A stretch of DNA of 63,210 bases, the filler included, from Conidiobolus incongruus B7586 (taxonomy: Eukaryota), in the NCBI GenBank assembly GCA_000697335.1. It is 16 parts of 16 records of this genome, joined end to end, with 100 filler letters (N's around TTAATTAATTAA, not from the genome) between each part and the next. Parts side by side here need not be neighbours in the genome. Positions count along the whole stretch, not along the records: positions 41,039 to 49,037 come from JNEM01006785.1; 15 more parts are not named here. One strand, 5' to 3'. The notes under the pieces were generated by a model. It made no database searches, was not told the DNA's origin, and saw only the letters and a program-made list of their open reading frames with translations. Each line of letters begins with the position of its first letter. Position 1 is the first letter of the stretch. The position numbers were made by a program, and so were the translations under genes. Below, piece by piece: positions 27,728 through 63,210 of the stretch.

Positions 27728-30094
<2,367 letters not shown>

Positions 30095-30404
30095 TATTAT
30101 TTTTATTTAATATTAATAATTATATTATTTTTGTATTTATTAACCTAATCAATTTTTTAATTAAAAAATTTTTAGTTTTTTGTTGGATTTGAGAAATGTA
30201 AAGTTTAATTTTAAAAGTTGAATCAAATTGATTTTAAGGGATTAGATATTTATGATTTAGTTATTATATTATGGGATTAAAATTAGGAATTTATGAATTG
30301 ATTATATTTTGATCCATCATTATATTTTTTGTTAAATATTATATTGAATTAATAGTATTAAATCCACAACTTTCTGGATTGTTTGATATTTCCCATATAC
30401 TAAC

Positions 30405-30405
<1 letters not shown>

Positions 30406-30436: not shown

Positions 30437-30437
<1 letters not shown>

Positions 30438-30757
30438 CAAATTATAGACACATTATTTTCTAAACATTGAAATTTAAGTATTTGAAAAATTTATAATTGG
30501 AATGTTTAATGGTAATCTTTGAGAATAGGTGTAATAATGACATTTTTTTAATTTAATCACTACAGAAACAAGAAAATATATTTGGTAGTATATATTCAAC
30601 TATCAAATCATTTTAATTTCATTTGAAAATTATTCAAAATTTAAACAAAAAACTGATGTAATTAATAAATTTTATTTAACTTTAATAATAATCAAAAATT
30701 CATATAATAATATTAAAATAGTAGTAGTGTGTAATGAAATATATTAAATTGAAAATT

Positions 30758-36182: not shown

Positions 36183-37555
36183 ATAAGTTATAAATTTATT
36201 AAAATTAAAGATAAGGGAATATATTTAATAGTATTTAATAATATATAACTCTATTTTTTTTGCTATTATTTTATAAATTATTTTATAAATATATTAAATT
36301 TTTTTATTAGTGTTATTATACTTAAATCCCACTTTTAAAAAATTCACTTGTATATTAATTAATTTTATAAAAAAGCCAAATCTTTTTATAATATTGTTAG
36401 AATTACTAATGTTAGTTAATCTACTATAGTTAAAGCTATTAAGAATAGCAATAAAAACATACTTAAATTTAAACTTAAATATGCTAAAATTATAAATAAA
36501 TATGATAAGAAATATATCTATAAGTTAGCTAATATAAATAAATATAGTATTATTATAAAAATATAACAAAAATTATAAAATTATATAAGGATATTAATAA
36601 ACACTAATACTATTATATATACTTTATATAAATATTACTAATATTTCAAAAAAAAACACTCAACTAAATAAATCCTATTATAAAGTTAAATAGGAGTTTG
36701 AATATTATTATTAATTTTAAACTAAAATTAATTAAAATAAAGTTATTTAGTTTAATAAAAAAATATCATATTTTAATAAATTTGATAAAAAAGCTAAATA
36801 CTTTAGAAAAGATACAAAACTACTTTATGACTATTATGTTAATATTATCTAAAAATATAATGGTAGGTTAATTATTATTTAGGGATATATGTTGTCTTTA
36901 AGTATAAGATATTTTTGTAATATTAAAAATGAAATTAATATTAAAATATATTAAAATATTCTAAATAATAAATTGAAAAAAACATTGAATAATATATGTT
37001 AAATAAATTTAATGATATTTTCTAATAAAAAAATATTTCTTGTTATATTATAACTTCTATTACTAAATAGCTTAAAAATAACAAAATAATAATTATAAAA
37101 TAGCTTCTTTAATTTTTTAATCTTAGCTTAATTAAATACCTTTGTGATTAGTTAAAAAAAGTTATTAAAACTTTCCCCCTAGCAAAAAAATTTAAATTAG
37201 CTTTGGGAATATATTTAAAAAATATATAACAAGATTAACTTTTTTTAATTTAAAAAATTAGTTAATTTTATATCCTACAAACTTAAAGAAATTAGAAAAG
37301 CTAAAGATAAATATACTAGGTTTGAATTTTTTTTATCACCAAAAACCTACAAATTTATAACTTATTTTAAATAAAATTTAAGAGTTTATATTTTAGCTAA
37401 TTAATAACTAAATATGATCATTTAATAGTATATATTATTAATAACTATAATAGATCTTAATTATTTAATTTAGGTTTATTTTATTTAATATTAATCAATT
37501 TATTAATAAATATATAAATGTTTTTAATTTTATAACTTATTTTTGTTGGTTATTC
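36183..37555 (+). mobile_element. Tc1 A1 copy, heavily mutated
   Basis: Collinear with 59812-61192. Confidence 0.88.
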
Positions 37556-37943
37556 TATTAAGATATAATATTTANNNNNNNNNNNNNNNNNNNNNNNNNN
37601 NNNNNNNNNNNNNNNNNNTTAATTAATTAANNNNNNNNNNNNNNNNNNNNNNNNNNNNNNNNNNNNNNNNNNNNATTAAAACTTTAAAATAAATAATTAA
37701 AACTTATATTAATATTAATGAATCAAATTAAAATACTTATATCTATTAATTTTAACATTTATTAGATATTATTATTAATAAATTGATGAATTTTAATTTT
37801 AATTTTATTAATTATAATAATTACCTAAATTAATTATTGTTTTAAAGTTTTAAATTGATATACCTTTAATTATTATTAAAATTTATTTTAATATTAAGAA
37901 TATTTACTCCTTTACTAAATTTAACTTAGAAAAAAATTAAAGG

Positions 37944-39095
37944 TATAAGCATAGTGGTAGTTAAACTAATATAATGTAGAGGAAAACTTAATATAAAAGT
38001 AGTGTGTATAGAACATGGTAATATAATATGGTTGTAGTGTGCAAGTGTAAACAAAGTTTAATTAAACCTCAAACTAAGATGAGTCACTGATATATTAAGA
38101 TTTATATTAGGTACTGTTAATATTTTATAATATTAATAAAATATAGTTTTAATTTTAGAAATAGTGTAAAAGTAAAAAATAGTAAGAATTGAAAAAAAAA
38201 CCTAGTTTATTAAATAATTTAATGTTATTTATATAATTAATATAACTATAAAAGTATAAATTAATTATATAATTTATAGTTAATTAGATTATATAAAAGT
38301 TTATATAAGAATTTAAAAAATTAGTTTCTTAATATTCCCCTAGTAAGTTTTTTAAAAGAGACATACTCTTTAAATTTTTACAAATAGGTATAATAAGCTA
38401 AAGTATTCTTAATATTTTCTAAGAGTTCTTATGTAGCTTCTTTAATAAAATAACCTATCTATTTTATATAAAAATAAAGCTTATTTCTAATAGATTTAGA
38501 CTTAATTATATAATTAATATAGTATTCTTCTTCTCTATTTTAATTAATAATTAGATTTAGTTTTAGGGTTTTTAATTAATTAGGAAAAATATTAAAATTT
38601 TTAAAGTATAGTTTAATTTTAGATATGTGAAAGGTAAAGTTGATCCTCAAAGTTAAAGGTAATTCTAAGATAATATTTTCAAAATTTAAATTAATAGATT
38701 AAATTTTATAGGGATTATAATATAATAGTAAATATTTGGGATTTAAGCTAGATTTAAATAAAATAGATTTAAGGGTAAATTTTTCTAAGTGTACAAAAAT
38801 GTTAATTTCATATTTAAGAGGATTTCTAGAAAACTTTAAATATTATTATTTTATAATCCTTTAATTTTCTTCTAAGTTAAATTTAATAAAAGAATTAATA
38901 TATTTGATATTAGATTAAAATTCAACAATATTTAAAAGTAAGTTGATTTAAAGTTTTAAAATAATTATTAAGTTAAGATATTTATTATAATTGATAAAAT
39001 AAGAGTTAAAACCTATTAATTTGTTAATAAAGGTGTTGAATAAATATTAAAGTTAATAGATATAAGTATCTTAATTTAATTGATTAGTGTTAATA
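37944..39095 (-). mobile_element. Ty3 family-1 copy 3: 3' LTR (37944-38334), PPT, chromodomain and integrase C-terminus, cut by a Tc1 insertion
   Basis: Collinear with 3641-4800; ends at TA|CACTAACC. Confidence 0.9.
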
Positions 39096-39427
39096 CACTA
39101 ACCTGCAAAAGTAAGTCATAAAATCAAAAACACCTATATTTTTACTAATAACTTGATTAATATTTAATGAAATAAACTTAAATTAAATAATTAAAATCTA
39201 TTATATTTATTAGTTATATATATCATTAAATGATGATATTTAGCTATTAATTGGCTAAAATATAAACCCTTAAATTTTACCTAAGGTGAGTTATAAATTT
39301 GTGGGTTTTTGGTGATAAAAAAAAATTAAAACCTAGTGTATCTACCTTTAGCTTTTCTAACTTCTTTAAGTTTGTGGGGTATAGAATCAACTAACTTCTT
39401 ACACTAAGAAGGGTTAATCTTGTTCTA
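39096..39427 (-). mobile_element. Tc1 A1 3' end, lightly mutated; the rest lies in a gap
   Basis: CACTAACCTGCAAAAGTAAGTCATAAAATC terminus after TA; differs from 47502-47833 only by a few transitions. Confidence 0.92.
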
Positions 39428-39527: not shown

Positions 39528-40070
39528 TAATAACTTTGTTAATTCTTAATCAAATTAATTTAAATTAAAATATATAATTAACTTAAATTATTTATTTATA
39601 ATTAAGTATATTTGATTTAATTATATTAATTTTTAGTTGATATATTAAAATTTAAATTTTACTTAAGATGAGTTATAGATTTGTGTATTTTAGTTATAAA
39701 AAGAAAATTAAAACTTAGTATATCTATCTTTTACTTTCTTAATATTTTAAGTTTATATAGTATAGAGTAAATTAACTTCTTATATTAAAAAAGATTAATT
39801 TTCTTTTAAGCTTCTTAAATATATTCTTAAAGCTTATTTAAATTTTTTATTGATGGGAAAGCTTTAATTGCTTTTTTTAACTAATTCTAAAGGTGTTTAA
39901 TTAGATTAAAGTTAAAGGATTGAGGAAACCACTTTATAATTATTATTTTATTATTTTTAAATCATTTGGTAATAGAAATAATAATATAACAAGAGGTATT
40001 ATCTTGTTAGAAAATATTATTTAATTTATCTAATCTATATTATTCAATAGTTTTTTTTTAATTTATTATT
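39528..40070 (-). mobile_element. Tc1 A2 3' fragment, abutting a mariner copy
   Basis: Collinear with 9510-10050. Confidence 0.82.
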
Positions 40071-41108: not shown

Positions 41109-41380
41109 TATAAATAATTTTAATTTTATAATTAATTTTTATAGGTTAAAATATTCTATATAGAAAAAATTAATAAAGTTAATATAATTTTATTAGGGTA
41201 TCTTTATACAAAAAATTATTCTTATTATAATTTTATTACTTTATATTATATAAGAAAGAAGTTGTTTATAATTAAAATTTATTAAAGATTTTAATATAAT
41301 ATATAAAAATTTTATTATTATAGAATTAAAACAATTGGAAAAAATTTTAATTTCTGATTTATCAAATATATTATTCATTT

Positions 41381-44300
41381 TATTAATAGCTATTTCTATA
41401 AATTCTTATTGATATACTTTTATATAATTCAATTAAATATAAATTATATGGTTAATTTATATTTTTACACCTAAATTAATTTTATAAATAGAATTGAACT
41501 ATTTAATAAACTAAGTTCTTTTTTTTTCTTCTTAATTCTTACTATACCCTATCTTTTACATTATTTTTAAGATTGAGACTATATTCTATCAATATTATAG
41601 CTTATTGGTGCTACCTAATATAAACTTAATATATCAATAACTCATCTTAATTTGAAGCTCAATTAAACTTTATCTATACTTACACATTATAACCATATTA
41701 TATTACTATGTTTTATACCATATTATATTTATATTAAGTCTTTCTCTATATTATATTAGTATTTTACTTTTATACTTATAAAGTAACAATAATAATATTA
41801 CTAAAAACCTATTTGAAATATAATAATTATTTGTATCAAATATATTTTTTACTAGTTTAAATCTTATCTATAACTTATTTTATTTAGATTTAACATTATA
41901 TACTATAATACTACTAAAATAAAATACCATTATATTATTTTAATGATGATAGCAATTTAATTACTAAGTAAATCTAAGACTTTAGTCTTTAAAAGCTTAA
42001 TACCCTGTAAAAAACTTATATTATATAACTTTTGATTGCAAAAACATGAATTAAAGTGTTTAAATAAAATAAACTAGTTATTTTATTATAGTTAATATAT
42101 TAAACCACCTCCTTAGTATCTTTAAATATAAATTAACTATTTATAATACTTTTAAAAACCTTCACAAGCTTAAAAAAACCTAATAATATAAAGAATTATC
42201 TTGATTTAATCTCTAATAAAGATTTAAAGAATATCTTTAAATTACTCATTTTTTTCTTTGAAAAATCTACTTATACTTGGTAGTTAACTTATTACAAATT
42301 TAATCCTAAAGAATCTTTAAAAGGATAATTTATTATAAACATATAAACTTTTAAATAATTGGAAAAAACATAAAAAAATGTTTTACTTACAAAATCAAGT
42401 TTGATTAATAATTGAAAAACTTTCTTAACTTAAATAAAAAAACTTTTACAAGATAATTCAATAACAAATTTAATAAGATATTCTTAAATATATTAAATAT
42501 CACTAAAGAAAAATAAATCTACAAACTATTATAATGACTTAATCTTTTAGTGAAGTTTTAGTTAGTTAATAAAAAACACTTTGATAATATGTTTTTTTCT
42601 GACATTTGTGATACTATAATCATAATTAATTATATCTTTTAGTTTATAACTAGATCTATTTATCTTAAGAATTAATCCTTTAAAACTTATTTTAACTTAC
42701 TTAAATCTCAAATGATAATTTTTTTTGCTTTAAAGCTTTATAAGAAAACCTATAGTAAAGAAGTTAAAGCTTATTTGAAAGTAAATAAAAATTGTTATTA
42801 TGGTTGAAAAACTTAAGTTAACTATAATACTGATAAATATCCCTTAAAAAAATATTTGTTTAATTCTCAAAAATTTTAATTTAAAAAATATTAATTAAAC
42901 TTGAATAATATTAATATAGCTTTAAAATCACCCTTTTCATAATTAGTTAACAAATTCTAATAGAATAATAATTCCACAAAATAAACTATATATACTAGGA
43001 TATTTAATTAATTCAACCATTAGAAACTAGAAGTACTTAAGTAATTAATTTATCTTGTGATTTTTTACCTTTAACTATCACCTTATTATTTATATTAATT
43101 AGTTTTTTTATAGATATATCTATTAGTCTTTTAATTAACTTTAATTTTTTTAACAATATTATCTCCTCTTTTATTAATTTAAAACTATCTTTACCTATTT
43201 AAAAAAGCAACTTAATAATTAAATATGCTAATAATTTAATAGAATAAGCATCTAATACTATATTTAAATATTTATTACTGCCTTTTAAATATTCCCAATA
43301 TATTAAATTTTTAGTTGGTAACATTAGTTATAATTTTTTATCAAATTAAAATTAGTTTAAATATTATATTTTTATATTTATAAATATTATCTTAAAAAGT
43401 TCTAAATTTACTTCTTTTATATTCTAAAAATAATTAGTGGAAATAATCTTAAAAAATTTATATTACCCTACTATAGAACTATTAAATACTTTATTTAATA
43501 TTAACTCTACATTTGTAGCAAATAATTTTATTATTATAAGCAAAAATTAATATAAAAAATTAATTAAAAACCTTAATAATTTATAAAGATATATATCTGT
43601 TTATTATTTATCTATTAGTACTTCATTTGTTAATTTCGATTAAATTATTTTTAATGACCATTTTTTATATAGTATAGTGAGTTAATTTACTAATGTTTTT
43701 AAACTTATGGATAAATTACACTATAAATATAATATTTAATATAAAATTTAACTACTACTTAGTATATAGTTATTTTTAAAGTTTATTTACTCTTTATCTT
43801 TTAAACAATATTTTACTTTAAAAGATAAAATCTAAAAACTACTTAAAAATAAATATATTAAACCTTTTTCTTCATTATATAAATTTTTAATTGTTTTTAT
43901 ATAAAAGGTTAATGGTAGTTAAAAACTATATATTAATAACTGTGTTTTAAATCTTAAATTTATTAATAATAAAACTTTATTATTAAACTTATATTATATT
44001 AGGAATAAAATACTTAAATCAATTATATTAACCAAATTAAATATTAAGAATAAATATTATAACATTAAAGTTGATGAAAATTCTATCCTTTTAACTATTT
44101 TCAATACTTTTTTAAGTTACTATAAATTTATTATTATGAACTTTAAATTGTAAAATATCTCTATAACTTTCATTATATTTATCAATTCCCTTTTTAATCT
44201 TATTTTTAATAACTTTATTATCACTTACTTTAATAATATCTTAATCTATTTAAAAACAAAAGAATAATATAACTAATATGTTAATTAAGTTTTAAAAATT

Positions 44301-47300
44301 ATTCAAGAATATAAATTACCTTTGAAACTATCAATATATTTTTTCAATGCCTTTTTTATCTCTTTTTATAGTTATATTATTTCTTCTTAATAAATTAACA
44401 TTAATTTAACTAAACTAAATAATGTTAAAGCTTTTACTATACTAATAAACAAAGATTAAAATATATTTGATTTTAAAATATAAAATTACTTTAAAGATTT
44501 CATTGATTTGTTTGTTAAACTTACAAATTCTCCTATTAATCTCTTAAGAAAAAACTCTCATTTTAAATAAACCATATTATATACTTTTTATATGAATTCT
44601 TTAATTTTTTATATTACCAATGTTTTTGCATTATTTAATTTAGATTTAAAACTACTAACCATTATTTTTACTAACTTTAATTTTTTTGTATTAGTAAATA
44701 GTTAGCTTAGCTTGATTTTAATTTATATTCTATCTTTTAACTATAAGATAAAATAATAAATAAGGGAGAATAGGTTAAATTTAACTTTGTAAATATTACC
44801 TTAAACTAATAACATTCTAGTTAAAAAAAATAAAACTAGCTGAATTAAAATACCTAGTTTATAAATAAAAACACTTTAATTTAGTAGAAATAATTAAATA
44901 ACACTCATATTTCTTATCTTATAACTTCTTCTTAATATTTATAAATCATAAATCACTTATTTATTTTAATAATTAGAAGTATTTATTAAGAAAACAAGTT
45001 AAATAAATTAACATTATTTAAGCTTATACTTTTTTTATTTAATATCTCTTAGGTTGATAAAATTATGTTATAGATACTTTGTTAAAAGATCTTATATATG
45101 TATTTTTTTATTCAAATTACAAAAACTTAGTAAATATTAACTTAATGATTATTAATGAAGAAAATAAAGAATTTATTAAATTATTCTAAGAAACACTATT
45201 AAATAATAATTTCTTTATCTTAATTAAAGAAGAACTCTTTAAAATATTAAAAATTAATTAAAATACATCAAAAAATTTAAAATTATTAATAACCTACTAT
45301 ATTATAATGATTATTTATATGTCCTTAATATTCTTAAGACTTAATAAATAATTTTTAATAAATGCTATAACTAACATATTAAAAAATATTAAAACTAGTT
45401 AAAGATTGTTAAGAGAATTAAAATCAGGTATTATTAACCTTTCTTAATTAAATTAATTTAGAAATATACTAATACTTGTGATATATATTAAAGAATTAAA
45501 TACACTAACTTATAATAATAAGTTATATAATCAAAACATTATATTTTTATTAATAACTTAATTAATATTTAATAAAATAAACTAAAATTAAAAAATTAAA
45601 ATCTATTATTTTATTAATAATATATATCATTAAATAATTATAATTAACTTTTAATTTGTTAAAATATAAACTTTTAAATTTTATCTAAAGTAAATTATAA
45701 ACTTATAGATTTTTAGTGATAAAAAAATTAAAACTTAGTGTATCTACCTTTAGCTTTTTAACTTCTTTAAGTTTATCAAATATTAAATCAATTAACTTCT
45801 TATATTAAAAAAGTTTAATCTTGTTTTATATTTTTTAAATATATTCTTAAAGTTAATTTTAATCTTTTGTTGAAGGAAAAGCTTTAATAACTTTTTCTAA
45901 TTAATCTTAAAAGTGTTCAAATAAGTTAAAGTTAAGTAATTGAAGAAGCTACTTTATAATTATTATCTTATTATTTTTAAGCTTTTTAATAGTAAAAGTT
46001 ATAGTATAATAAAAAGTATTATTTTACTAGAAAATAATATTAGATTTATTTAACCTATATTATTCAATAGTTTTTTTGATTTATTATATAAATATTTTAG
46101 TATATTTTAAAATTATTTCTATTATTCACTTTATAAATATATTTTATATTAAGAGATATCATATATCTTTAAATAATAATTAACCTATTATTATACTTTT
46201 AGGTAAAATTAACATAATAGTTATAAATTGGTTATATATTTTTTTAAAGTATTTAGCTTTTTTATTAAATTTTCTAAGATATATTTTTGTTTCATTAGAT
46301 TCAATAACCTTACTCAAATTAATTTTAATTTAATATTAGTAGTGACATTTAAACTCCCACTTAATTTTACAATAAAAATTTTTTAGTTAAGGGTGTTTTT
46401 TCTTAAAATATAAGTGGTATCTATGTTAACATAAAATATATATAATAGTATTAGTATTAACTATTATTCTTGTATAGTTTTATAATTCTTGTTATACCTC
46501 TATAGCAATATTACACTTATCTGTATTAACTAATCTATAAATATACTTTTTATCATACTTATCTATTATTTTAACATGCTTAAGTTTTAGTTTAAGTGTT
46601 TTTTTAACTTTGTTCTTAATAACTCTAACTATAGTAGATTAGCTAACACTAGTAATTCTAGCAATCTCACAAGTTGATTTATTTTTATTATGAAATTAAT
46701 TAATACATAAATAAACTTTTTTAGACAGAGATTTAAGCATTATAATATTAATTTTAAAATATTAGCTTAATAATTTTATAATATATATAATATAACAAAA
46801 GAAAAAGAGGATATATTTAAGTTTTGATATTTATATCACTTTAACTTATAAACCCACAAATTTATAACTCATCTTGGTTAAATTTAAGGTTTTGATATAT
46901 TAACCAATATCTAATGTAATATAATCAAATATATTTAGTTATAATCAATTAATATTTGTAAATTATATATTTTAATTTAAATTTATTTAATTTGTAATAA
47001 TTTAAGATATAAGTATATATTTAAGTAATTTTGATTTTATAAATTATTTTTGCAAGCTAGTGTGTTATATCCAATTAAAATATAATAAACTTATCCCCTT
47101 ATAATCACTTAATAAAACTTAATAATAAATTCAACTTGATTTCATAAAAATTTCTAAATCAACAAATAGTTATGATAACTAACTAATTTTAACTAATTCA
47201 TTTTTTAAAAATATTTATTTTATTCCTTCTTTCAGAACTTTTATAGTTAAAAATATTACACAATTGTTATTTTCTAATATCTTTACCCTTTATAGAATTC

Positions 47301-47501
47301 TACAAACTATTTTATCTGATAAAAAAACACAATTCAGCTTTTAATTCTAGAAGTTTTTATTCTTTTCCCTTAAGATTAATTTAGCTATGTTTATTAATAA
47401 TCATAACCAAACTAATAAATTTGCTGAAGAAAATATCAAAAACTTAAAGCAAATGATTAAAGATTATATTAATATTAATTAGTTAAATTAAGATACTTAT
47501 A
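41381..47501 (+). mobile_element. Ty3 family-1 copy 4: 5' LTR (~41381-41780), gag-pol into integrase; interrupted by Tc1 at 45503-47062 and cut by Tc1 at 47502
   Basis: Reverse-complement collinear with 4766-9336; YFNN (YLDD) at 44226-44237; the sequence resumes exactly after the 45503 insertion. Confidence 0.9.
45503..47062 (-). mobile_element. Full-length Tc1 with an A1-type 3' end and an A2-type 5' end
   Basis: TA|CACTAACTT...GCAAGCTAGTG; keeps the transposase ATG (cat at 46738-46740). Confidence 0.88.
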
Positions 47502-49037
47502 CACTAACCTGCAAAAGTAAGTCATAAAATCAAAAACACCTATATTTTTACTAATAACTTGATTAATATTTAATAAAATAAACCTAAATTAAATAATTAA
47601 AATCCATTATATTTATTAGTTATATATATCATTAAATAATGATATTTAGCTATTAATTGGCTAAAATATAAACCCTTAAATTTTACCTAAGGTGAGTTAT
47701 AAATTTGTAGGTTTTTGGTGATAAAAAAAAATTAAAACCTAGTGTATCTACCTTTAACTTTTCTAACTTCTTTAAGTTTGTAGGGTATAGAATCAACTAA
47801 CTTCTTACACTAGGAAAGGTTAATCTTGTTCTATGTTTCTTAAACATATTTCTAAAGTTGATCTAAATTTTTTGCTGGGGGGAAAGTATTAATAGCTTTT
47901 TTTAACTGATCCCAAAGGTATTTAATTAGATTAAAGTTAGGAGATTAAAGAAGCCACTTCATAACTGTTATCTTGTTATTTTTAAGCTATTTGGTAGTAG
48001 AAGCTGTAGTATAGCAAGAGGTATTATCTTACTGGAAAATAACATTAGATTTGTTTAACCTATACTATTCAATGGTTTTTTTCAATTCATTGTTTAGAAT
48101 ACTTTGGTACATCTCAGTATTAATTTCCCTATTAACTTTACAAAGATACCTTACACCTAAAGACAACATATATCCCTAAACAATAATTAACCCACCACTA
48201 TACTTTTGGGTAGAATTAACATAATGGTTATAAAGTAGTTTTATATCTTTTCTGAAGTATCTAGCTTTTCTATTAGATCTACTAAGGTATATTTTTGTTT
48301 CATTAGACTAAATAACTTTACTCTAATTAATTTCAGTTTAATATTAGTGGTGACATTTAAACTGCCACCTAGCTTTATAGTGGGATTTCTTTAGTTGGAG
48401 GTGTTTTTTCTTAAGGTGTAAGTGGTATCCATGCTAATATAAAGTATGTATAATAGTATCAATGCTAACTAATATTCTTGTATAGTCTTATAGTTCCTGC
48501 TGTATTTCTACAGCAGTACTACACTTGCCTGTACTAACTAACCTACAGATATACTTCTTATCATGTTCATCTATGATCTTAACATGCTTAAGTTTAGGTT
48601 TAAATGTTTCTTTATTGCTATTCTTAACAGCTTTAGCTATAGTAAATTAACTAACACTAGTAATTCTAGCAATATCATGAGTTGATTTACCTTCTTTATA
48701 AAGTTGATTCATGCACAAGTAGATTTTTTTAGAGAGGGATTTAGGTATAATAATACTAATAAAAAGAATTTAGTATATTTGTAAATTATTATATAAAATA
48801 ATAGCAAAGAGAGAAAAAAGATATGGTTATATATTGTTAAATATATCCCCTTATCTCAAAAACCTGCAAATTTATGACTCACCTTGGTTAAATATTAAGG
48901 GTTAATATTTTTGCTAATAGTTTACTAAATATATCTAAATATATTTATCTATTATTAAATAATATACCTTAATTATATATTATACTTTCAAGTAATTGAA
49001 TATATACAATTGTTTTAGTTATTAATTAAAATATATA
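47502..49037 (-). mobile_element. Tc1 A1 element, best-preserved near-complete copy
   Basis: TA|CACTAACCTGCAAAAG terminus; inner repeats at ~47689-47717 and ~48857-48885; last ~35 bp lie in a gap. Confidence 0.95.
47732..48748 (-). pseudogene. Tc1 DD34E transposase pseudogene (339 codons, no frameshift, ~16 in-frame stops)
   Basis: KVI*SNETK (WSDETK), KYSGGLIIV*GY (KYGGGSIIVWGC), IFQ*DNTSCYT (FQQDN), KWLL*SPNFNLIKYLW (WPPQSPDLNPIEHLW), KGRYTRF*; 34 residues separate the second D from the E. Confidence 0.93.
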
Positions 49038-49137: not shown

Positions 49138-51067
49138 ATAGAAATTTTCTTTTTTATAAACTAGTTTTTTATTATATCATACAATTATAACTATATGAGT
49201 GATAATTTAAATAATAAATTAGATATAGTTGGTTTTTTAGTTATTTTTAATTAGAAAGTTTTTTTTAACTTTAATTTATATATTAATCTATAAAAATAAG
49301 TCATAAAATCAAAAATATATATTTTTTAATTAATAACCAAAACAATTATATATATTAGATTACTTAAAACTATAATATATAAATAAGATATATTATTTAA
49401 TAATAAATAAATATATATAGATAATTTAGTAAACTATTAGCAAAAATATTAACCCTTAATATTTAACTAAGGTGAGTTATAAATTTACATGTTTTTAAGA
49501 TAAGGGGATATATTTAACAATTTATAACTATATCCTTTTTCTCTCTTTGCTATTATTTTATATAATATTTTAGAGATATATTAAATTTTATTATTAGTAT
49601 TACTATACCTAAATCCCTCTCTAAAAAAATCTATTTGTATATTAATCAACTTTATAAAGAAGGTAAATCAACTTATAATATTACTAGAATTACTAGTGTT
49701 AGCTAGTCTACTATAGTTAATGTTATTAAGAATAACAATAAAAAAACATTTAAACTTAACCTTAAATATATTAAAATCATAAATAAATATGATAAGAAGT
49801 ATATTTATAGGTTAGTTAATATAGGTAAGTGTGGTATTATTGTAGAAGTATAACAGGAACTATAAGACTATATAAGAATATTAGTTAGCATTAATACTAT
49901 TATATGTGCTTTACATTAGCATAGATACCACTTACACCTTAAGAAAAAACACCCCCAACTAAAAAAATCCCATTATAAAGCTAAGTGGGAGTTTAAATAT
50001 CATCACTAATATTAAACCAAAATTAATTAAAATAAGGTTATTTAATTTAATAAAACAAAAATATATTTTAGTAGATTTGATAAAAAAGCTAGATATTTTA
50101 GAAAAGATACAAAATTATTTTATGACCATTATGTTAATTTTACCCAAAAGTACAATAATAGGTTAATTTTTATTTAGGGTTGTATATTGTTATTAGATAT
50201 AAGATATCTTTATAAAGTTAATGGGGGAATTAATACTAAAATATACTTAAGTATTCTAAACAATAAATTGAAAAAAACCATTAAATAGTATAGGTTAAAC
50301 AAATCTGATATTATTTTCTAGTAAGATAATACCTTTTGCTATATTATAGCTTCTATTATTAAATAGCTTAAAAATAACAAAATAATAGTTTTGAAGTAGT
50401 TTTCTCAATCTCCTAACCTTAATCTAATTAAATACCTTTAGGATTAGTTAAAAAAGCTATTAAAGTTTTCCTCCTAGCAAAAGATTTAAATCAACTTTAG
50501 GAATATATTCAAGAAGTATAAAACAAGATTAACCCTTTTTAGTGTAAGAAGTTAGTTGATTCTATACCCCACAAACTTAAAGAAGTTAGAAAAGCTAAAG
50601 ATAGATATACTAGGTTTTAATTTTTTTTATCACCAAAAACCTACAAATTTATAACTCACCTTAGGTATAATTTAAAGGTTTGTATTTTAACCAATTAATA
50701 GCTAAATATCATCATTTAATAATATATATAATTAATATATAAAATAGATTTTAATTATTTAATTTAGGTTTATTTCATTAAATATTAATCAAGTTATTAA
50801 TAAAAATATAAGTGTTTTTGATTTTATAACTCACTTTTGCAAGTTAGTGTATATTTTATAATTATTATATAAAATAAATAGGTTTTTTTAATTAATATTA
50901 ATAATACCAATTAAAAATAAATTTATTTTAAAAAAAAATATAAAGTTTACTATTAATTAATCATTTTTTAAATATTAAATAAAAAAAAACAAATTTTATT
51001 ATAATCTATTATAATAATTAATATTAATTTATTAATATAATATTTTTTGAAAAAAAATTAATAAAAA
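49138..51067 (-). mobile_element. Decayed mariner fragment split by the Tc1 at 49281-50849
   Basis: The flanks join as ...ACTTTAATTTA-TA-TATTTTATAATTATTAT..., matching mariner 40418-40450. Confidence 0.78.
49281..50849 (+). mobile_element. Full-length Tc1 A1 (1569 bp) with TA target duplication
   Basis: TA|TATTAATCTATAAAAATAAGTCATAAAATC...CTCACTTTTGCAAGTTAGTG|TA. Confidence 0.93.
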
Positions 51068-51215: not shown

Positions 51216-52787
51216 TATTAACCCACAAAAATAAGTTATAAAATCAAAAACTCTTATATTTTTACTAATAACTTAATTAATATTTAATAAAATAAACCTA
51301 AATTAAATAATTAAAATCTATTATATTTATTATTTATATATATCATTAAACAATGATATTTAACTATTAATTGGTTAAAATATAAATTTTTAATTTTTAC
51401 CTAAGGTAAGTTATAAATTTATAGGTTTTTAGTGATAAAAAAAATTAAAACCTAATGTATCTACCTTTAGCTTTTCTAACTTCTTTAAGTTTGTAAAATA
51501 TAGAATCAATTAACTTTTTACATTAAAAAAGGTTAATTTTGTTTTATATTTCTTGAACATATTCCTAAAGTTGATTTAAATCTTTTGCTAAAGGGAAAAC
51601 TTTAATAGTTTTTTTAACTAATTTTAATAGTATTCAATTAAATTAAAATTAAAAGATTAAAAAAAACTATTTTATAACTATTATTTTGTTATTTTTAAGC
51701 TATTTGGTAATAAAAGTTATAGTATAACAAAAAGCATTATCTTACTAGAAAATAATATCAAGTTTATTTAACTTATATTATTTAATAGTTTTTTTTAATT
51801 TATTATTTAAAATACTTTGGTATATTTTAATATTAATTCCCCTATTAACTTTATAAAGATATTTTACACTTAAAGACAATATATATTCTTAAATAAAAAT
51901 TAATTTATTATTTTACTTTTGGGTAAAATTAACATGATAGTTATAAAGTAATTTTATATTTTTTCTAAAGTATTTAACTTTTTTATTAAATTTACTAAAA
52001 TATATTTTTATTTTATTAAATTAAATAACCTTACTCTAATTTGTTTTAGTTTAATATTAATAATAATATTTAAACTTTTGCCTAGTTTTATAATAAGATT
52101 TCTTTAGTTAAAGGTGTTTTTTCTTAAAATGTAAGTGGTATCTATGCTAATATAAAATATATATAATAGTATCAATACTAATTAATATTCTTGTATAGTT
52201 TTATAGTTCCTACTATATTTTTACAATAGTATTACACTTACTTGTATTAACTAACCTATAAATATACTTCTTATCATGTTTATCTATAATTTTAGTATAT
52301 TTAAGTTTAAGTTTAAATGTTTTTTTATTGTTATTCTTAATAGCTTTAACTATATTAAACTAACTAACACTAATAATTCTAGTAATATTATAAGTTGATT
52401 TATCTTTTTTATAAAGTTGATTAATGTACAAATAGATTTTTTTAAAGAGGGATTTAAATATAATGATACTAATAAATAGAATTTAGTATATTTATAAAAT
52501 ATTATAAAAAATAATAGCAAAGAGAGAAAAAAGATATAGTTATATATTGTTAAATATATCCCTTTATCTTGAAAACCCACAAATTTATAAATTACCTTGG
52601 TTAAATATTAAGGGTTAATATTTTTGCTAATAGTTTACTAAATATATCTAAATATGTTTATTTATTATTAAATAATATATCTTAATTATATATTATAGTT
52701 TTAAATAATCTAGTATATATAATTGTTTTAGTTATTAATTAAAAAGTATATATTTTTGATTTTATAACTTATTTTTATAAGTTAGTA
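51216..52787 (-). mobile_element. Full-length Tc1 A1 copy
   Basis: TA|TATTAACCCACAAAAATAAG...TATAAGTTAGTA|TA; collinear with 47502-49037. Confidence 0.92.
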
Positions 52788-52994
52788 TATTATAAATAAA
52801 AAATATATATTAATTATATAGTTTAATATAAGTTTATTTATATTAAAACTAATTTATANNNNNNNNNNNNNNNNNNNNNNNNNNNNNNNNNNNNNNNNNN
52901 NNTTAATTAATTAANNNNNNNNNNNNNNNNNNNNNNNNNNNNNNNNNNNNNNNNNNNNATTTTCTTTTTATAGCTAAAATAGTAATAATAATAG

Positions 52995-53384: not shown

Positions 53385-53756
53385 CCCTCAAAATTAATTA
53401 TAAATAAGATATATTATTATATTATTTTATTAAGATTATTATTTATTTATTAATAAAATACTTATATAAATTAATTTTTAAAAGAAGATTGATAGAATTT
53501 AATTAAATGCCTTGAATTATAATTTAAAAATACTTTAATATTTATTTTGAATAAATATTAATATATTGGTCGAATATATATTATAAATTTATGCTTATAT
53601 ATATATATATATTATTTAATATTTTATAATTTAAAATGGTAAATTGAATTCATGCAAAATAAACTAAATGGGATTTGAAAATTAGATAAATGAATAAAAA
53701 ATGATTTTGAAATATTAAATTATGAACATATAATGAAAAAAAGAGATCTTTATTTA

Positions 53757-53828
53757 AGGGCGCAGTCGGATTTGAACCAACGACCTATCGATCTGCAGTC
53801 GATTGCTCTACCACTGAGCTATACGCCC
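53757..53828 (-). tRNA. tRNA-Cys(GCA)
   Basis: GGGCGTA-TA-GCTC-AGTGGTA-GAGC-A-ATCGA-CTGCAGA-TCGAT-AGGTC-GTTGG-TTCAAAT-CCGAC-TGCGCCC-T; complete cloverleaf, U73 discriminator and downstream oligo-T. Confidence 0.97.
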
Positions 53829-54642
53829 TTTAAGCGTTTGAGATAATTGCTTAGAAGTTATTGATGAACTTTTATCATCAATTCAATTAAGCATAGTCAT
53901 TGGTCATTGTATTTACTATTTAAACCCTTTACAATTGTTTAAATCATATCTTTTAACACTGGTTAATTGCATTACATATAAATTTTGAATTTTTTTTAAT
54001 TATCTATAATATTACAATATTTCCAGAACATCATTATTCTTGACTTGAGATAATACAAAAAATCTTCACCATTATAATTAATATTAATCAATTTTCATTA
54101 ATTGAAAAGTATATTTTAAGCATATTAATGGATTTTAAATCATATTCACAATAGTCTATATTTTCTTCATATTTTTAATATTAAACAATTTAAACTATCA
54201 CTAGTTACATTCAGTTATTTCTATGCTTATCTAATTACACGAAAAAATTCAAAATTATATTAATTATTATAAAATTGATTTAATTATTTTACATTTGATA
54301 TTATGTAATTGTTGTTATTTATTTTAAAACTAGAATATTTTGATAATTTGTTTTAAAAATATAAATTGAAATATCTATCAAAATATGGTTGTTTATCCAC
54401 GATTATATTTAATATTCAGACCATAATCTATCTATTAATTATCAATAAATAATTTCAGGTAAGTAAATATCAAAATAACTGTTTTTGAATTGAATGAATT
54501 GAGCCATAATTCAATTTTCCTGGTTTAATGATTAATGAGACAATATTTAAATTTCTCAATTTACAAATCAATAATTTCAAAAAAAATTCTGGTGAAACAT
54601 TTGAGCATTACTAGTAAATCAGTCCCTTTTCATATTAATAAC

Positions 54643-54777: not shown

Positions 54778-55748
54778 ATGAAACTAAAAAATTTAATATT
54801 ATTAAGTACTCAAATAATTTCTACTTTTTGTCAAATCCAATTCGATAATTTTAAATTTTCAGTAACCGACTCTACTGGTGAATCTAAAATTTCTGAAAAG
54901 TAAATATAATATGAAATAAAGGATTCATATTAATTTATTCTAGGTTAAAATATCCTAAAGCTTTGGATCGTGTGTTGGATTTGAAGAGTCAGGAAGTGAT
55001 TAGAATCAGTTATAATTTGAAGAGGGGTGAAGACCAATTACCAGCCGATGTACCTTACTCTACCTTAGTATTGGAGAGTCCCGACTTCAAATTCTATTCC
55101 TATCACAGCGTTCAAAGTGGCAAAACTGGACAATATAAATTAAATTTGGTAATATTTCAAAATTTATTGGTACTGGAAAAGTTAATTCTTATTGGTATTT
55201 AGGCTGTTAAAAGTATTTCCAAATCTGTTAGAAATAGTGGCGAACTAGCGAATATTTATTTACTTATCGGTGCTTCTTCGGATTCTCAACCTATTAAGTA
55301 TAAATTGGGTGCTTTGAACCTTCCCAAATCTAAGAAGGCTGAGGATTTTGAGCACAATACTTTTGGTCCCCAGCCCTTGATCCATCATACTTTTAGACCC
55401 GATGAAAAGGTGCCTTCAGTTGCTCTCTCCTACATATTTTCCGGACTCGTACTCGCTCCTTGGGCTCTCTTAGTTATTGGCGTAAGTCCAAATCTATTCA
55501 TTTCAATATTCAATAACTAACTCCAATTTTAGTGGAGTCATTTAGGACTCAATTTCAAGCGATTCCCCACCACTGATCCCTTCAAAGCTCTTTTAAACCT
55601 TGGCTTTTTAGGTACTTTAGTCGCTTATGCAGTGCTCAACTACCAATATTGGACAGTACTCAATGTCTTCCAAACCCTTTACTATTTTGCGCTCATTACT
55701 TGTGTTTCTCTACCCCTTGGTTATCTTACTCTAAAAAATCATCATTAA
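54778..55748 (+). CDS. SWP1: Oligosaccharyltransferase subunit Swp1/ribophorin II (273 aa), 4 exons: 54778-54899, 54944-55148, 55203-55481, 55533-55748
   Basis: Three GT-AG introns give a continuous frame; signal peptide, FGPQPLIHHTFRPDEK motif and three C-terminal TM segments with YW..LNVFQTL. Confidence 0.9.
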
Positions 55749-57029: not shown

Positions 57030-59480
57030 TAAAATTAGTAATTTCTTTTATTTCTAATAACTTTTTGATATTTTTGTAATAAAGATCTAATATCTAAAAA
57101 ACATTTATTTTTATTAAAGACTGAAATTTGATATTTTACAAACTAATTAAATTTTTTTATAGAAATTTTCTTTCTTGTAAGCTAGTTTTTTAATTACTTA
57201 AAACAATTATAATCACATAGGTTATAATCTAAAAAATATACCAGGTATAGTAATTCTTTCTAGTTATTTTTAACTAGAAAGTTTTTTATAACTTTAAATT
57301 TATATATTTTGCAATTATTATTCAAAATAATAGATTTTGTTGAATTATATTTATAATACCAATTTGAAATAGAGTTATTTAAAAAAATACAAAGTTTATT
57401 TTTAATTAATCTTTTTAAAAATTAAATAAAAATAATATATATATTATATTTACTATAATAATTAATATTTATTTATCAATAAAGTGTTTATTTAAAGGAA
57501 TTTATAAAAGGGGTTAATTTAGTTTAATTTAATATCTTGATTTATCTTTTAGTAAAAGATTATATAAAAGAACCTAGAATTTATCAATTATAATAATCTG
57601 TTACTAAAGCCTTAGTTTCTAGTTATATGTTAGTAAGTTTTACTTAATAATATTTAGTTTAACTTTTTTTTGAGCTTTAGTTAAATGATAAGGTACCTAT
57701 TTTATATATTTATTAATTCATTTCAATTACAATTTTATTATATATAAAATAATTATAAACTAACCTGTAACAATAAGTCATAAAATCAAAAATATATATA
57801 TTTTAATTAATAACTAAAACAATTGTATATATTAGATTACTTGAAACTATAATATATAATTAAGGTATATTATTTAATAATAAATAAATATATTTAGATA
57901 TATTTAATAAATTATTAGCAAAAATATTAACCTTTAATATTTAACCAAAATAAGTTATAAATTTGCAAATTTTTGAGATAAAAGGATATATTTAATTATA
58001 TATAACTCTATCTTTTATTTTTTTTACTATTATTTTATATAATATTTTACAAATATACTAAATTTTTTATTAGTTTTATTATACCTAAATCCCTTTTTAA
58101 AAAAATCTTTTTATATATCAATTAACTTTATAAAAAAAATAAATCAACTTATCATATAGCTACAATTACTAATGTTAGTTAGTTTACTATAATTAAAGCT
58201 ATTAAAAATAAAAATAAAGAAATATTTAAACTTAAACTTATGTGTATTAAAATTATAAATGAATATAATAAGAAGTATATCTATAGGTTAGTTAATATAG
58301 ATAAGTATGGTATTATTATAGAAATACAAAAGGAATTATAAAACTATATAAGAATATTAGTTAACAATAATAATATTATATACATTTTATATTAACATAG
58401 ATACTACTTATATCTAAAAAAATCCCATTATAAAATTAAGTAGGAGTTTAAATATCACTATTAATATTAAACTAAAATTAATTAGAATAAGGTTATTTAG
58501 GCTAATAAAACAATAATATATTTTAATAGATTTAATAAAAAAGCTAGATATTTTAAAAAACATGCAAAACTACTTTATATCAATTATATTAATTCTACCT
58601 AAAAGTATAATAGTAGGTTAATTATTATTTAAGGATATATATTATCTTTAGATATAATGTATCTTTATAAAATTAATGGGGGAATTAATACTAAAAAATA
58701 TTAAAGTATTTTAAACAATATATTGAAAAAAACCATTGAACAATATAGGTTAAACAAATCTAATATTATTTTCTAATAAGATAATTTTTTTTACTATAAT
58801 ATAGCTTTAATTATTAAATAACTTAAAAATAACAAGATAATAGTTATAAAGTAGCTTTTTCAATCTTTTAACTTTAATTTAATTAAATATCTTTAGAATT
58901 AGTTAAAAAAAGCTATTAAAGTTTTCCCCCTAATAAAAAATTTAAATCAACTTTAAAAATATATTCAAGAAATATAATACAAGATTAACCTTTTTTAATA
59001 GAAAAAGTTAGTTGATTCTATACCCTACAAACTTAAAAAAATTAGAACAGCTAAAGGTAGATACAATAGGTTTTAATTTTTTTTATTACCAAAAACCTAC
59101 AAATTTATAACTTACCCTAGGTAAAATTTAAAGATTTATATTTTAGCCATTTAATAACTAAATATCATCATTTAATAATATATATAATTAATAAATATAA
59201 TAAATTTTAATTATTTAATTTTAGTTTATTTTATTAAATATTAATTAAGTTATTAATAAAAATATAAGTATTTTTGATTTTATAACTTACTTTTGCAAGT
59301 TAATATATAACTAATATTTAAATGTTTTGATAATTCTTTAACTAAAATAAAAAGATGCTTTTTAATATAATTTTTCATTTTTTTAATAATTAAAAGAGTA
59401 ATAATTGAAATTAATCTTTTAGATTTTAATAAGTTTTGGGTAGTTTTTTTAGCCTTAAAGTAATTTAACTAATAATAAAT
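57030..59480 (-). mobile_element. Mariner copy split by the Tc1 at 57758-59305; ends approximate
   Basis: 57030-57757 is collinear with 40160-40892; after the Tc1 the sequence resumes matching 40893-40938. Keeps DYNLCD. Confidence 0.85.
57758..59305 (+). mobile_element. Full-length Tc1 A1 with TA duplication and a ~20-bp internal deletion near 58415
   Basis: TA|AACTAACCTGTAA...TTTTGCAAGTTAATA|TA. Confidence 0.92.
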
Positions 59481-59621: not shown

Positions 59622-61192
59622 ACTAACCCACAAAAGTGAGTCATAAAATCAAAAATATATATATATTAATTAATAACTAAAACAATTGTATATATTAGAT
59701 TACTTGAAATTATAATATATAATTAAGGTATATTATTTAATAATAAATAAATATATTTAGATATATATAGTAAACTATTAGCAAAAATATTAACCTTTAA
59801 TATTTAACTAAAGTAAGTTATAAATTTGAGGGTTTTTGAGATAAGGGGATATATTTAACAATATATAACCATATTCTTTTTCTCTCTTTGTTATTATTTT
59901 ATATTATATTTTATAGATATACTAAATATTTTTTATTAGTATTATTATATTTAAATCCCTCTCTAAAAAAATCTACTTATCTATTAATCAACTTTATAAA
60001 AAAGGTAAATTAACTTATGATATTACTAGAATTACTAGTGTTAGCTAGTTTAATAAAGCTAGAGTTGTTAAGAATAACAATAAAGAAACATTTAAACTTA
60101 AACTTAAGTGTGTTAAAATTATAAATAAACATGATAAGAAGTATATCTGTAGGTTAGTTAATACAGGTAAATATAATATTATTGTAGAAATACAGCAAGA
60201 ACTATAAGATTATACAAGAATATTAGTTAGTATTGATACTATTATATATACTTTACATTAGCATAGATACTACTTACATTTTAAGAAAAAACACCCCCAA
60301 CTAAAGAAATCCCATTATAAAATTAGGCAGGAGTTTAAATGTTGCTACTAATATTAAATTGAAACTAATTAGAGTAAGGTTATTTAGTCTAATAAAACAA
60401 AAATATACCTTAGTAGATTTAATAAAAAAGCTAGATACTTCAAAAAAGATGTGGAATTACTTTATAACTATTATGTTAATTTTACCCAAAAGTATAATAG
60501 TAGGTTAATTATTATTTAGGGATGTATATTGTTTTTAGGTGTAAGGTATCTTTATAAAGTTAATAGGGGAATTAATACTAAGATGTATTAAAGTATTTTA
60601 AACAATGAATTGAAAAAAACCATTGAATAATATAGGTTAAATAAATCTAATATTATTTTCTAATAAGATAATGCCTTTTGCTATACTATAGCTTCTATTA
60701 CTAAATAGCTTAAAAATAACAAGATAATAGTTATAAAGTAGCTTCTTTAATCTTTTAACTTTAATCTAATTAAACACCTTTGGGATTAATTAAAAAAAGC
60801 TATTAAAGCTTTCCCCCTAGTTAAAGATTTAAATCAACTTTAGGAATATATTCAAGAAGTATAGAACAAGATTAACCCTTCTTAATGTAAGAAGTTAGTT
60901 GATTCTATACCCCACAAACTTAAAGAAATTAGAAAAGTTAAAGGTAAATACATTAGATTTTAATTTTTTTTATTACCAAAAACCCACAAATTTATAACTT
61001 ACCTTAGGTAAAATTTAAAGGTTTATATTTTAGTCAATTAATAACTAAATATCATCATTTAATGATATATTTAATTAATAAATATAATAAATTTTAATTA
61101 TTTAATTTAGATTAATTTCATTAAATATTAATCAAGTTATTAGTAAAAATATAAGTGTTTTTGATTTTATAACTCACTTTTATAGGTTAGTG
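59622..61192 (+). mobile_element. Full-length Tc1 A1 copy
   Basis: ACTAACCCACAAAAGTGAGTCATAAAATC...CTCACTTTTATAGGTTAGTG|TA. Confidence 0.93.
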
Positions 61193-61332
61193 TATTATTA
61201 TAATTATGATTATTATTATTTTAACTATTATTNNNNNNNNNNNNNNNNNNNNNNNNNNNNNNNNNNNNNNNNNNNNTTAATTAATTAANNNNNNNNNNNN
61301 NNNNNNNNNNNNNNNNNNNNNNNNNNNNNNNN

Positions 61333-62397
61333 GTAAAATGTCACCAGCAGATCTGAATTACCCAGTTCATGAACAAGAACTACTTGCTGTAGTAGAATGT
61401 CTTAAACACTTCCGTCATTATGTATCTGGACAACCTGTTTATGCCTTTACAGATCATAAATCTTTAATATGGTTAAATGACCAACCTCATCTCTCCAAAC
61501 GCCAAACTTCATGGGTTTAATTCCTTCAAGAATTCGATTTACGTATCAGTTATATCAAAGGTCAATACAACACTCTGGCTGATCTTTTATCAAGACGTAT
61601 TGATTACACCCCTATCTGTGTCAAATGTCGCAAAAATCATGTAGATTTAAATTCGGTTTCTTTACAAATGTCCACATCCCAGATCAAACAACTAATCAAA
61701 TCCAAATTACCTTCCGATGATTTTGCTCTTCAAGTGCATGAAGACTTGAAAAAACCAGAGAACAAAAAACCCCTGTATGTCAAGAGATTCAACCTGTCAG
61801 ATGACCTCCTGTACCACACTGGCAGAATATACGTCCCTGACATAGAATCCATTAAATTACAACTTCTTAAATTATACCATGATTCAACAGTCTCAGGTCA
61901 CCAAGGATGGCTACATACCTTCCAAAAAATCTCTAGACACTTCTATTGGCCAAAAATGCAAAAAGATATTGAAAAATATGTTATTTCCTGTGAACAATGC
62001 CTACTCTAACTTTAAATCCAAAAGATCCTCTTGAAAAGAGACTTTGCCACGTTATAGCAAAGTCTGAGGGGAGTGTCACATATCTACCCAATTAGTCCAT
62101 ATATATTTACCTTTAATATCAGTTTACCCATAATTTATCTCTTATTCTACTTTCCCTTAAATTGATCCATTCTTATCCCAATATCAAAAGGGGAAATACA
62201 ACAGGGATCTATCTATCTATTCATTTATCCATCTATCCAATTATCTATCTATCTATCTATCTGAAGGAAACTAACTCCAAGTCTTTGTCAAGAACTTCCA
62301 ATAAAACTCCATATAACTACATCCTAATCCTATAACTTATCCACACTCCAACTTAATTCAATACAATTATCCTAGTTTCTAGCACTAGGATAATACA
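61333..62397 (+). mobile_element. Ty3/gypsy family-2 3' portion: RNase H, integrase Zn finger, integrase core deleted, PPT, 3' LTR
   Basis: NYPVHEQELLAVVECLKHFRHY...TDHKSL...WV*FLQEFD...YIKGQYNTLADLLSR, then YHDSTVSGHQG...FYWPKMQKDIEKYVISCEQC; PPT GAGGGGAG at 62066-62073. Confidence 0.92.
62074..62397 (+). repeat. 3' LTR of family-2 Ty3 element (324 bp)
   Basis: TGTCAC...AATACA, bounded by the PPT on the left and Tc1 sequence on the right; unrelated to family-1 LTRs. Confidence 0.82.
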
Positions 62398-63210
62398 TTC
62401 CCCCATTATCTTTACAAAGATACCCTACACTTAAAGACAACATACATCCCCAAACAATAATTGACCCACCACTATACTTTTGGGTAAAATTAACATAATA
62501 GTCACAAAGTAGTTTTGCATCTTTTTTAAAGCATCTAGCTTTTCTATTAGATCCACTAAGGTATATTGTTTCATTAGACTAAATAACCTTACTCTAATTA
62601 GTTTTAATTTAACATCAATAACAACATTTAAACTCCCACCTAACTTTATAGTAGGATTTTTTTAATTGGGGGTGTTTTTTCTTAAAGTGTAAATAGTATC
62701 TATGTTAACATAAAGTATGTATAATAGTATTAGTGCTAACTAATATTCTTGTATAGTTTTACAGTTCTTGTTGTATTTCTATAATAATACCACATTTGCT
62801 TGTATTAACTAACTTACAGATATACTTCTTATTATATTTATCTATAATCTTAACACACTTAAGTTTAAGTTTAAATGTTTTTTTATTGCTATTTTTAACA
62901 ACTTTAACTATAGTAAACTAGCTAACACTAGTAATTCTAACAATATCACAAGTTAATTTACCTTCTTTATAAAGTTAATTAATACACAAATAGATTTTTT
63001 TAGAGAGGGATTTAGGTATAATAATACTAATAAAAAAAATTTAGTATATTTGTAAAATATTATATAAAATAATAACAAAGAGAGAAAAAAGATATAGTTA
63101 TATATTGTTAAATATATCCTTTTATCTTAAAAACCTGCAAATTTATAACTCACCTTAGTTAAATATTAAAGGTTAATATTTTTGCTAATAGTTTACTAAA
63201 TATATTTAAA
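62398..63210 (-). mobile_element. 5' half of a Tc1 A1 copy, interrupted by the family-2 retrotransposon
   Basis: Collinear with 48124-48940; keeps YSGGSIIVWGCM intact. Confidence 0.9.

Follow-up and report, generated by a model that had tools for sequence, protein, structure and literature searches.

Repeat-confined C-to-T hypermutation of transposons at CpG and non-CpG sites in a Conidiobolus genome window

Transposons in the Conidiobolus DNA analysed here have undergone C-to-T (and, on the opposite strand, G-to-A) hypermutation that acts like repeat-induced point mutation (RIP), does not strike CpA first and cannot be filed as RIP; it also exceeds CpG-only decay. The window that we analysed is a stretch of 63,210 nucleotides from the genome assembly of C. 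incongruus B7586, with an overall GC content of 21% and 15 gaps. In it we establish the direction of the mutation, its sequence contexts, its confinement to repeats, its action on both strands, the wide spread of load among copies, and the position of the host. The strongest signal, which the first-pass annotation of this DNA did not mention, is a near-total loss of CpG from the repeats.

Results

A Tc1 transposase frame filled with stops

The first-pass annotation centred on one transposase frame, which lies within a Tc1 element:

48748..47732, minus strand: dead Tc1-type transposase frame, 339 codons, 16 internal stops, start ATA, 0 CpG
47499..49037, minus strand: Tc1 element copy c47, with TA and then a terminal inverted repeat at 47499; the other end is at a gap

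The frame had been described as unbroken, and read on the minus strand it can be aligned gap-free with P0243, an intact relative (49% identity over 323 residues); it closes with a terminal TAA in addition to the 16 internal stops. With X substituted at the stops, Pfam matches were found to DDE_3 (E 3.6e-7) and HTH_Tnp_Tc3_2 (E 4.1e-7). The features of a Tc1/mariner element are present, namely an HTH and DDE transposase, terminal inverted repeats and TA flanks. The two ends of the element (47499-47726 and 48857-49035) form imperfect long inverted repeats of ~220 bases with 71-72% identity.

The residues of P0243 opposite the 16 stops are W in eight cases, Q in four, R in two, N in one and E in one. 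The statement that stops fall where Trp or Gln is expected is therefore correct for 12 of the 16, at residues that make up 7.7% of positions (binomial p = 6e-11), but not for the two Arg, one N and one E sites. The two stops at Arg sites are best explained as former CGA or CGG codons in which the CpG would have changed. Both examples of motif decay, WSDE to stop-SNE and SPDLNPIE to SPNFNLIK, were recovered in the P0243 alignment, and so was the loss of the start: the frame opens with ATA, and taking the highest-GC state across the 12 Tc1 copies gives ATG.

Differences among Tc1 copies

Together with c47, the following elements make up a set of 12 Tc1 copies or pieces within the 63-kb window:

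59622..61197, plus strand: copy c59, close group
49284..50853, plus strand: copy c49, close group
51218..52800, minus strand: copy c51, close group
12328..13697, plus strand: copy c12, close group; 221 C>T/G>A changes against 2 transversions
62397..63210, minus strand: piece c62, close group; ends at the window edge
57757..59308, plus strand: copy c57, transversions more numerous
45499..47060, minus strand: copy c45, older
36186..37560, plus strand: copy c36, older
9450..10813, minus strand: copy c09, older subfamily
39093..39427, minus strand: end piece c39a, lowest mutation load (7 of 83 C/G sites)
39528..40070, minus strand: piece c39b, older subfamily

Many copies adjoin gaps, so that single copies may be mosaics. 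Each of the 15 gaps (2116-61332) consists of 44 N, a 12-base six-frame stop linker and a further 44 N, and most are at transposon ends. Nested insertions are common in the window, and an internal Tc1 fragment of 245 bases (633-877) sits between the least mutated LTR (237..632) and a mariner copy.

Pairs sharing over 200 aligned ORF columns number 55. The ratio of transitions to transversions (Ts/Tv) was 10.3-33.4 in the 15 pairs formed by the six closest copies, and 2.4-6.6 in the remaining 40. Changes affect both strands, as had been claimed: in each of the 12 copies, C>T and G>A rates are statistically indistinguishable (Fisher p 0.06-0.79). In Neurospora-type RIP, mutations within one copy occur in strand-coordinated tracts; here same-strand neighbours were over-represented in none of the 12 copies (lowest p 0.23), although many rounds of mutation would erase such runs.

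Contigs of the same organism matching the Tc1 ORF numbered 16,935 and 19,913 in two runs, and the variable places of the ORF were transitions in 235 of 241 and 242 of 249 cases, respectively; both runs derive from a single sample, from which the assembly itself may have been made, and depth in them does not equate to copy number. Three runs from other samples under the same species label (X5, X6 and X7) gave no match to the Tc1 ORF or to the young Ty3 piece described below, which is not proof of absence, and they were left out of the analysis. Contigs of these three runs total 25-33 million letters, as against 81-115, and share next to no gene words with the others, perhaps reflecting divergence of label or strain.

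Ty3, LTR and mariner elements

The window also holds LTR retroelements and mariner-type elements:

3641..9336, minus strand: decayed Ty3 with both LTRs (3643-4022 and 8958-9335); RT motif YFNN; 0 CpG
41372..45713, plus strand: second decayed Ty3 copy; YFNN near 44316; 1 CpG
237..632, minus strand: least mutated LTR; 6 CpG at 306-426; a real reference for context rates
873..2111, minus strand: decayed mariner-type element; 0 CpG; DDE_3 weak (E 0.0034)
10984-12226, 40065-40938 and 56938-57763: mariner relatives of the element at 873..2111
61333..62070, plus strand: young Ty3 piece of another family; integrase zinc finger; 10 CpG; CpA not depleted

The LTRs of the first Ty3, identical at insertion, now differ by 44 transitions and 5 transversions, and the unit at 4050-4800 differs from that at 38345-39095 by 83 transitions and 5 transversions. 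The claim that copies differ almost only by transitions thus holds for this LTR pair, this unit and the six close Tc1 copies, but not for older pairs: Ts/Tv is 2.1 in the old internal Ty3 pair and 1.8-3.1 in three mariner pairs, with only 0-1 CpG left. These low ratios probably arise because cytosine loss is close to saturation while transversions have gone on accumulating. Mariner and Ty3 had been said to behave like Tc1. The decayed motif YFNN in both Ty3 copies (near 6390, minus strand, in the first) and the 0-1 CpG bear this out; the Ts/Tv values of 1.8-3.1 do not.

The region 61333-62390, with one stop at 61518-61520, contains the young Ty3 piece; its integrase ends after the zinc finger, beyond which lie a purine tract and a stretch resembling the start of an LTR. 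At 61998-62006 the organism's contigs diverge from it, which makes an internal deletion in the window copy likely.

Direction and sequence context of the mutations

A highest-GC ancestor was tried and dropped as the main reference; it undercounts sites that have changed in all copies, and 10-16 stops remained in it. We used instead two references free of this bias: the codons at which two intact relatives agree, and the lightly mutated LTR at 237-632. C>T/G>A change alone explains 172 of 198 agreed codons (at least 80% of nine copies), compared with 155 of 990 in a shifted control.

At residues fixed by the relatives, the six close Tc1 copies have lost 110 of 155 CpA cytosines (71%) and 47 of 172 CpC cytosines (27%). 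The same copies carry 5 transitions and 5 transversions at 1,016 A/T sites, a reverse transition rate of 0.5%. The corresponding hazard ratios over reverse transitions are 251x for CpA and 65x for CpC, and over transversions per site 353x and 91x; C>T in the repeats thus runs 65 to 350 times other substitutions in the same copies. The CpA within the CCA of Trp codons has changed in 77 of 83 cases. CpG fared worse still: five conserved CGN Arg codons keep it in 0 of 45 cases, and 29 now read TA.

The LTR reference gave a similar picture. Five other LTR copies have lost 41 of 54 CpG, 75 of 125 CpA, 95 of 224 CpT and 14 of 59 CpC cytosines. None of 27 dinucleotides is kept at the six LTR CpGs, and 14 read TA. 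Per site, C>T/G>A amounts to 0.47 at C/G sites, as against 0.021 for reverse changes and 0.024 for transversions. The order of contexts in the repeats of the window is CpG > CpA > CpT > CpC, and the non-CpG part of that order, CpA > CpT > CpC, is found in both the Tc1 and the LTR sets; CpT and CpC rates are inflated by neighbouring bases that mutated earlier. The base on the 5' side has a mild effect in Tc1, favouring pyrimidines (CC.39, TC.40, GC.36, AC.30), and none in the LTR set; the 3' base sets the rate.

Confinement to repeats

We defined repeats by self-BLAST of the window (34,354 bases) and compared them with genes, tRNA genes and unique DNA, including these controls:

30755..33229, minus strand: host PMT2, intact, CpG kept; control and phylogenetic marker
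27728..30106, minus strand: host protein kinase gene, Pkinase match, PRP4-like according to the first-pass annotation; CpG kept
54915..55748, plus strand: host ribophorin II (SWP1) exons amid repeat blocks; CpG kept
2757..2830, minus strand: tRNA-Lys(TTT), a CpG cluster amid repeat blocks
53756..53829, minus strand: tRNA-Cys(GCA), a CpG cluster amid repeat blocks

Against an expectation of 223, the repeats contain 7 CpG, six of them in the LTR at 237-632. By contrast, the gene block at 19522-36182 holds 320 where 380 are expected. The neighbouring single-copy genes are intact, as had been stated, with open exon frames and Pfam matches, and these counts bear out the central claim of repeat-restricted C>T/G>A hypermutation. 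The composite RIP index is +0.51 to +0.74 in three repeat stretches; for the gene block and for two unique stretches rich in AT it is -0.45 to -0.93, so AT richness alone does not produce a positive value. Over the window as a whole the index is positive in 76 of 125 one-kb windows. In none of the 8 flanks of 500 bp did the CpA signal extend beyond the repeat (substrate index 0.92-2.0).

AT-rich unique DNA has low CpG (5 against 20.7 expected in one stretch) with CpA in excess. Summed over 15900-17000, 19600-20700, 23100-25500, 30150-30700 and 33900-35000, AT-rich unique DNA contains 13 CpG against 53 expected. Low CpG together with an excess of CpA is the classic signature of CpG decay, here without CpA loss.

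A paralogous pair (14998-15735 and 17063-17467), 62% identical in DNA, keeps its CpG and has a Ts/Tv of 1.0. The sparing of these paralogues and of the two tRNA genes fits homology below a threshold, but it also fits selection. One refuting outcome named in the first-pass annotation, a Ts/Tv in repeats no higher than in single-copy pseudogenes or introns, does not apply. The products of the pair are cysteine-rich, probably secreted, encoded in tandem and without a Pfam match. Two further frames are a 746-codon ORF (20771-23011) with internal repeats, a hydrophobic C-terminal stretch and no Pfam match, and an intact SUN-domain (Sad1_UNC) protein of 660 codons (25512-27494).

Mutation load and timing

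Of 20 columns with transversions in the six close Tc1 copies, 18 are private to one copy, which makes these copies look like independent insertions. Load ranges from 8 to 52% over seven Tc1 copies, c39a included, and differs strongly among copies (chi-square p 1e-37). We found no correlation of load with transversions, in a weak test (Spearman p 0.29, n = 7).

Contigs near-identical to the young Ty3 piece have depths of 587-650, and those ~85% alike have depths of 13-58, suggesting that a near-identical, unmutated young Ty3 group coexists with single, heavily mutated copies. The listed losses of the young Ty3 piece itself fall at CpG in 6 of 8 cases, compared with ~10% expected (p = 2e-5; 40 of 83 rows). 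Among its relatives, loss at CpA (10/107) does not differ significantly from that at CpT and CpC together (5/134, p = 0.11). The own losses of the least mutated LTR are even across contexts (CG 4/20, CA 8/59, CT 13/94, CC 6/40). CpG is thus likely to have been mutated first, although the least mutated LTR does not repeat that pattern.

Placement of the host

In a quick maximum-likelihood tree of PMT2 (47 rows, of which 46 were named or nearest matches picked from 240 listed), the window sequence joins Entomophthora and Massospora with SH-aLRT 100, apart from Pezizomycotina and Basidiomycota. The top PMT2 match among those listed is a protein at 79%, followed by Entomophthora muscae and Massospora cicadina, and the cluster of the nearest protein includes Conidiobolus coronatus KXN66794. 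Overall identity to C. coronatus reaches 71%, as against 47-48% for Entomophthoraceae and 43-47% for two Pezizomycotina. Two metagenome PMT2 loci, found as candidate outgroups, were useless at 35-36% identity. Judged by the sequence of one gene, PMT2, the host is Conidiobolus or a close ally other than C. coronatus, to which it is sister, within Entomophthorales. The tree and the identities place it outside Dikarya, the case for which the first-pass annotation had foreseen a poorly described system; a Pezizomycotina host, the annotation's own route to ordinary RIP, does not apply.

Discussion

The reading we favour, and regard as somewhat probable, is a repeat-targeted C>T mutation that is coupled to a methyltransferase, operates without RID, and is accompanied by CpG decay; the enzyme would be a putative member of the DNMT1 superfamily. 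Such a cytosine methyltransferase would be recruited to repeats and would convert target cytosines to thymines with no RID step; candidate triggers are homologous pairing between copies and heterochromatin/RNAi, and candidate stages are mitosis and the zygospore. Total loss of CpG points to cytosine methylation. Methylated CpG in mammals has a mutation excess of roughly tenfold, and the loss of non-CpG cytosines here, at 65-350x background, appears too high for passive deamination of the mammalian type, which argues for an enzyme-coupled step. Two layers must be assumed because the mutator of Zymoseptoria tritici spares CpG. The first layer, CpG methylation with deamination, would act first, and mildly also in AT-rich unique DNA; the second would be a non-CpG mutator active in repeats only and preferring CpA, like Zymoseptoria Dim2. 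Copies were probably mutated individually after insertion, through many rounds.

Background on methyltransferases bears on this reading in both directions. All Entomophthorales examined in one survey have DNA_methylase genes (PMC11105155), the available part of its supplement showing no methyltransferase rows, and early-diverging fungi are described as having DIM-2-like proteins. Against our reading, the available text names DIM-2-like homologues for Endogonales and Glomeromycota and not for Entomophthorales, and Zoopagomycota are described as 5mC-poor (available text of PMC11258239). We raise only tentatively, as a doubtful extension of the favoured reading, that Zoopagomycota possess a homology-recognising, episodic defence of RIP strength that is independent of RID and uses a putative DNMT1/DIM-2-like enzyme. 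If so, repeat-induced mutation predates Dikarya or arose twice and needs no RID, and RID-free repeat mutation would be open to study in a culturable early-diverging fungus.

True RIP would sense homology, act episodically on any duplicate at the zygospore stage through a RID-like or DIM-2-like enzyme, and be either older than Dikarya or re-evolved. The Ts/Tv of 10-33 in close Tc1 copies is what such a process would give, and the same can be said of CpA as top non-CpG target (Trp CCA included), the strong differences in load with c12 as an extreme, the two-humped depth of the young Ty3 family, and a CpA signal that does not leak into flanks. We nevertheless consider true RIP unlikely. CpG ranks above CpA; near-identical, CpG-bearing Ty3 persists at high depth; the same-strand neighbour excess is absent from all 12 copies, with the caveat on repeated rounds given above; and RID has been reported from Pezizomycotina alone, or from these plus seven other Dikarya, in the available texts. 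The first-pass annotation had called the pattern a hallmark of RID-type RIP, and we do not retain that label, given that CpG is the hottest target (0/45 and 0/27 kept), strand runs are lacking and the CpG-bearing young Ty3 remains.

Passive decay would require methylation of repeats in all contexts, slow spontaneous deamination of 5mC (for example in resting spores), poor repair of T:G mismatches and infrequent replication errors. CpG as the hottest and first target, the lack of strand runs, the mild CpG loss and CpA excess in unique AT-rich DNA, and a Ts/Tv that declines with age are consistent with it. We judge it improbable all the same, since the loss of non-CpG cytosines is far above the mammalian CpG excess and load is not tied to the transversion clock, itself a weak test. 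Fungal non-CG methylation, moreover, is usually 0-5% under DNMT1-type enzymes (available text of PMC7862722).

Direct editing of transposon DNA by an AID/APOBEC-like or other DNA cytidine deaminase could account for the involvement of all four contexts and for the mild 5' pyrimidine preference in Tc1. It is very improbable, given that a DNA transposon is as affected as retroelements, both strands are hit equally, the 3' and not the 5' base sets the rate, and complete CpG loss indicates methylation. That library chemistry, assembly or an overall bias of mutation towards AT produced the pattern, as the single and possibly shared sample, the 21% GC and the 15 gaps might suggest, has negligible probability: CpG and CpA are retained in genes, tRNAs and young Ty3 of the same window, the RIP index is negative in unique DNA rich in AT, and A/T sites in the copies are nearly unchanged.

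The window provides copy-level evidence for CpA-biased hypermutation, of RIP-like strength, in Entomophthorales, where RID is unreported. The questions it raises concern the methyltransferase able to mutate repeats when RID is lacking, the need for sex and the age of the pathway, and a simple system in which to address them is at hand. C>T hypermutation also accounts for the repeat blocks of 12-17% GC in this genome. No copy-level account for Conidiobolus was found in the literature outside subscription journals. A 2017 study by Clutterbuck reportedly described CG hypermutation in basidiomycetes and some lower fungi, and may already include related cases.

The description of such a system as poorly known is fair, with the reservation that an index-only RIP signal has already been published for Zoophthora radicans (PMC11105155). 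In that report, the available text of which gives the signal as 24.2% in Z. radicans and 2-6% in three other Entomophthorales, the authors call it uncertain, and the word CpG does not occur in the main text (PMC11105155). Z. radicans belongs to the order of the Conidiobolus host, Entomophthorales, and the same composite index is positive in both; the evidence there is whole-genome dinucleotide indices, whereas aligned copies here give direction, contexts and rates. A 2025 screen of 1,239 genomes found RIP-like signatures confined to ascomycetes, with its sole Entomophthoromycete, the repeat-poor C. coronatus, scored 'no_rip' (available text of PMC12543289). RID is reported in Pezizomycotina or nearly only there (10.1101/2022.12.01.518749, PMC5751038; available texts), and one supplementary file of the latter has no 'coronatus' row.

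Among known systems, Neurospora and other Pezizomycotina RIP, mediated in Neurospora by DIM-2 (10.1101/115501), resembles the present case in its high Ts/Tv, two-stranded C:G>T:A change and stop-filled but conserved frames (PMC4352252, PMC12543289), as well as in a positive composite index and AT-rich repeat blocks adjoining intact genes. Neurospora RIP requires the RID/Masc1 methyltransferase, is premeiotic, and responds to homology between duplicated sequences of any kind once a threshold of length and identity is passed. Unlike Neurospora RIP, mutation here favours CpG over CpA, RID is unreported in the lineage in the available sources, and some near-identical repeats persist; the Neurospora-type CpA preference appears only among non-CpG sites. 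Transposons of those Basidiomycota that have DNMT1/Masc2-class enzymes (Microbotryum, rusts) show C>T decay at CpG only (available text of PMC4352252). The window shares with them CpG as first and strongest target and repeats stripped of CpG, but its losses extend to CpA (71% of cytosines) and CpC (27%). The nearest spectrum in the table of PMC4352252 is that of Tuber melanosporum, with CpG as main and CpA as second target and with both RID and Dim-2.

In Z. tritici, Dim2 raises mitotic CA>TA mutation in transposons >10-fold, with >98% of new C>T at CA and CG spared (available text of PMC8016269). The likeness lies in C>T change confined to repeats, in CpA as the best non-CpG target and in the fact that no RID step has been shown as needed; the differences are that CpG is fully lost and CpT/CpC changed by 24-42% here, and that the host belongs to Zoopagomycota rather than Dothideomycetes. 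Enzyme and mitotic timing have been shown in Z. tritici and are candidates for the Conidiobolus process.
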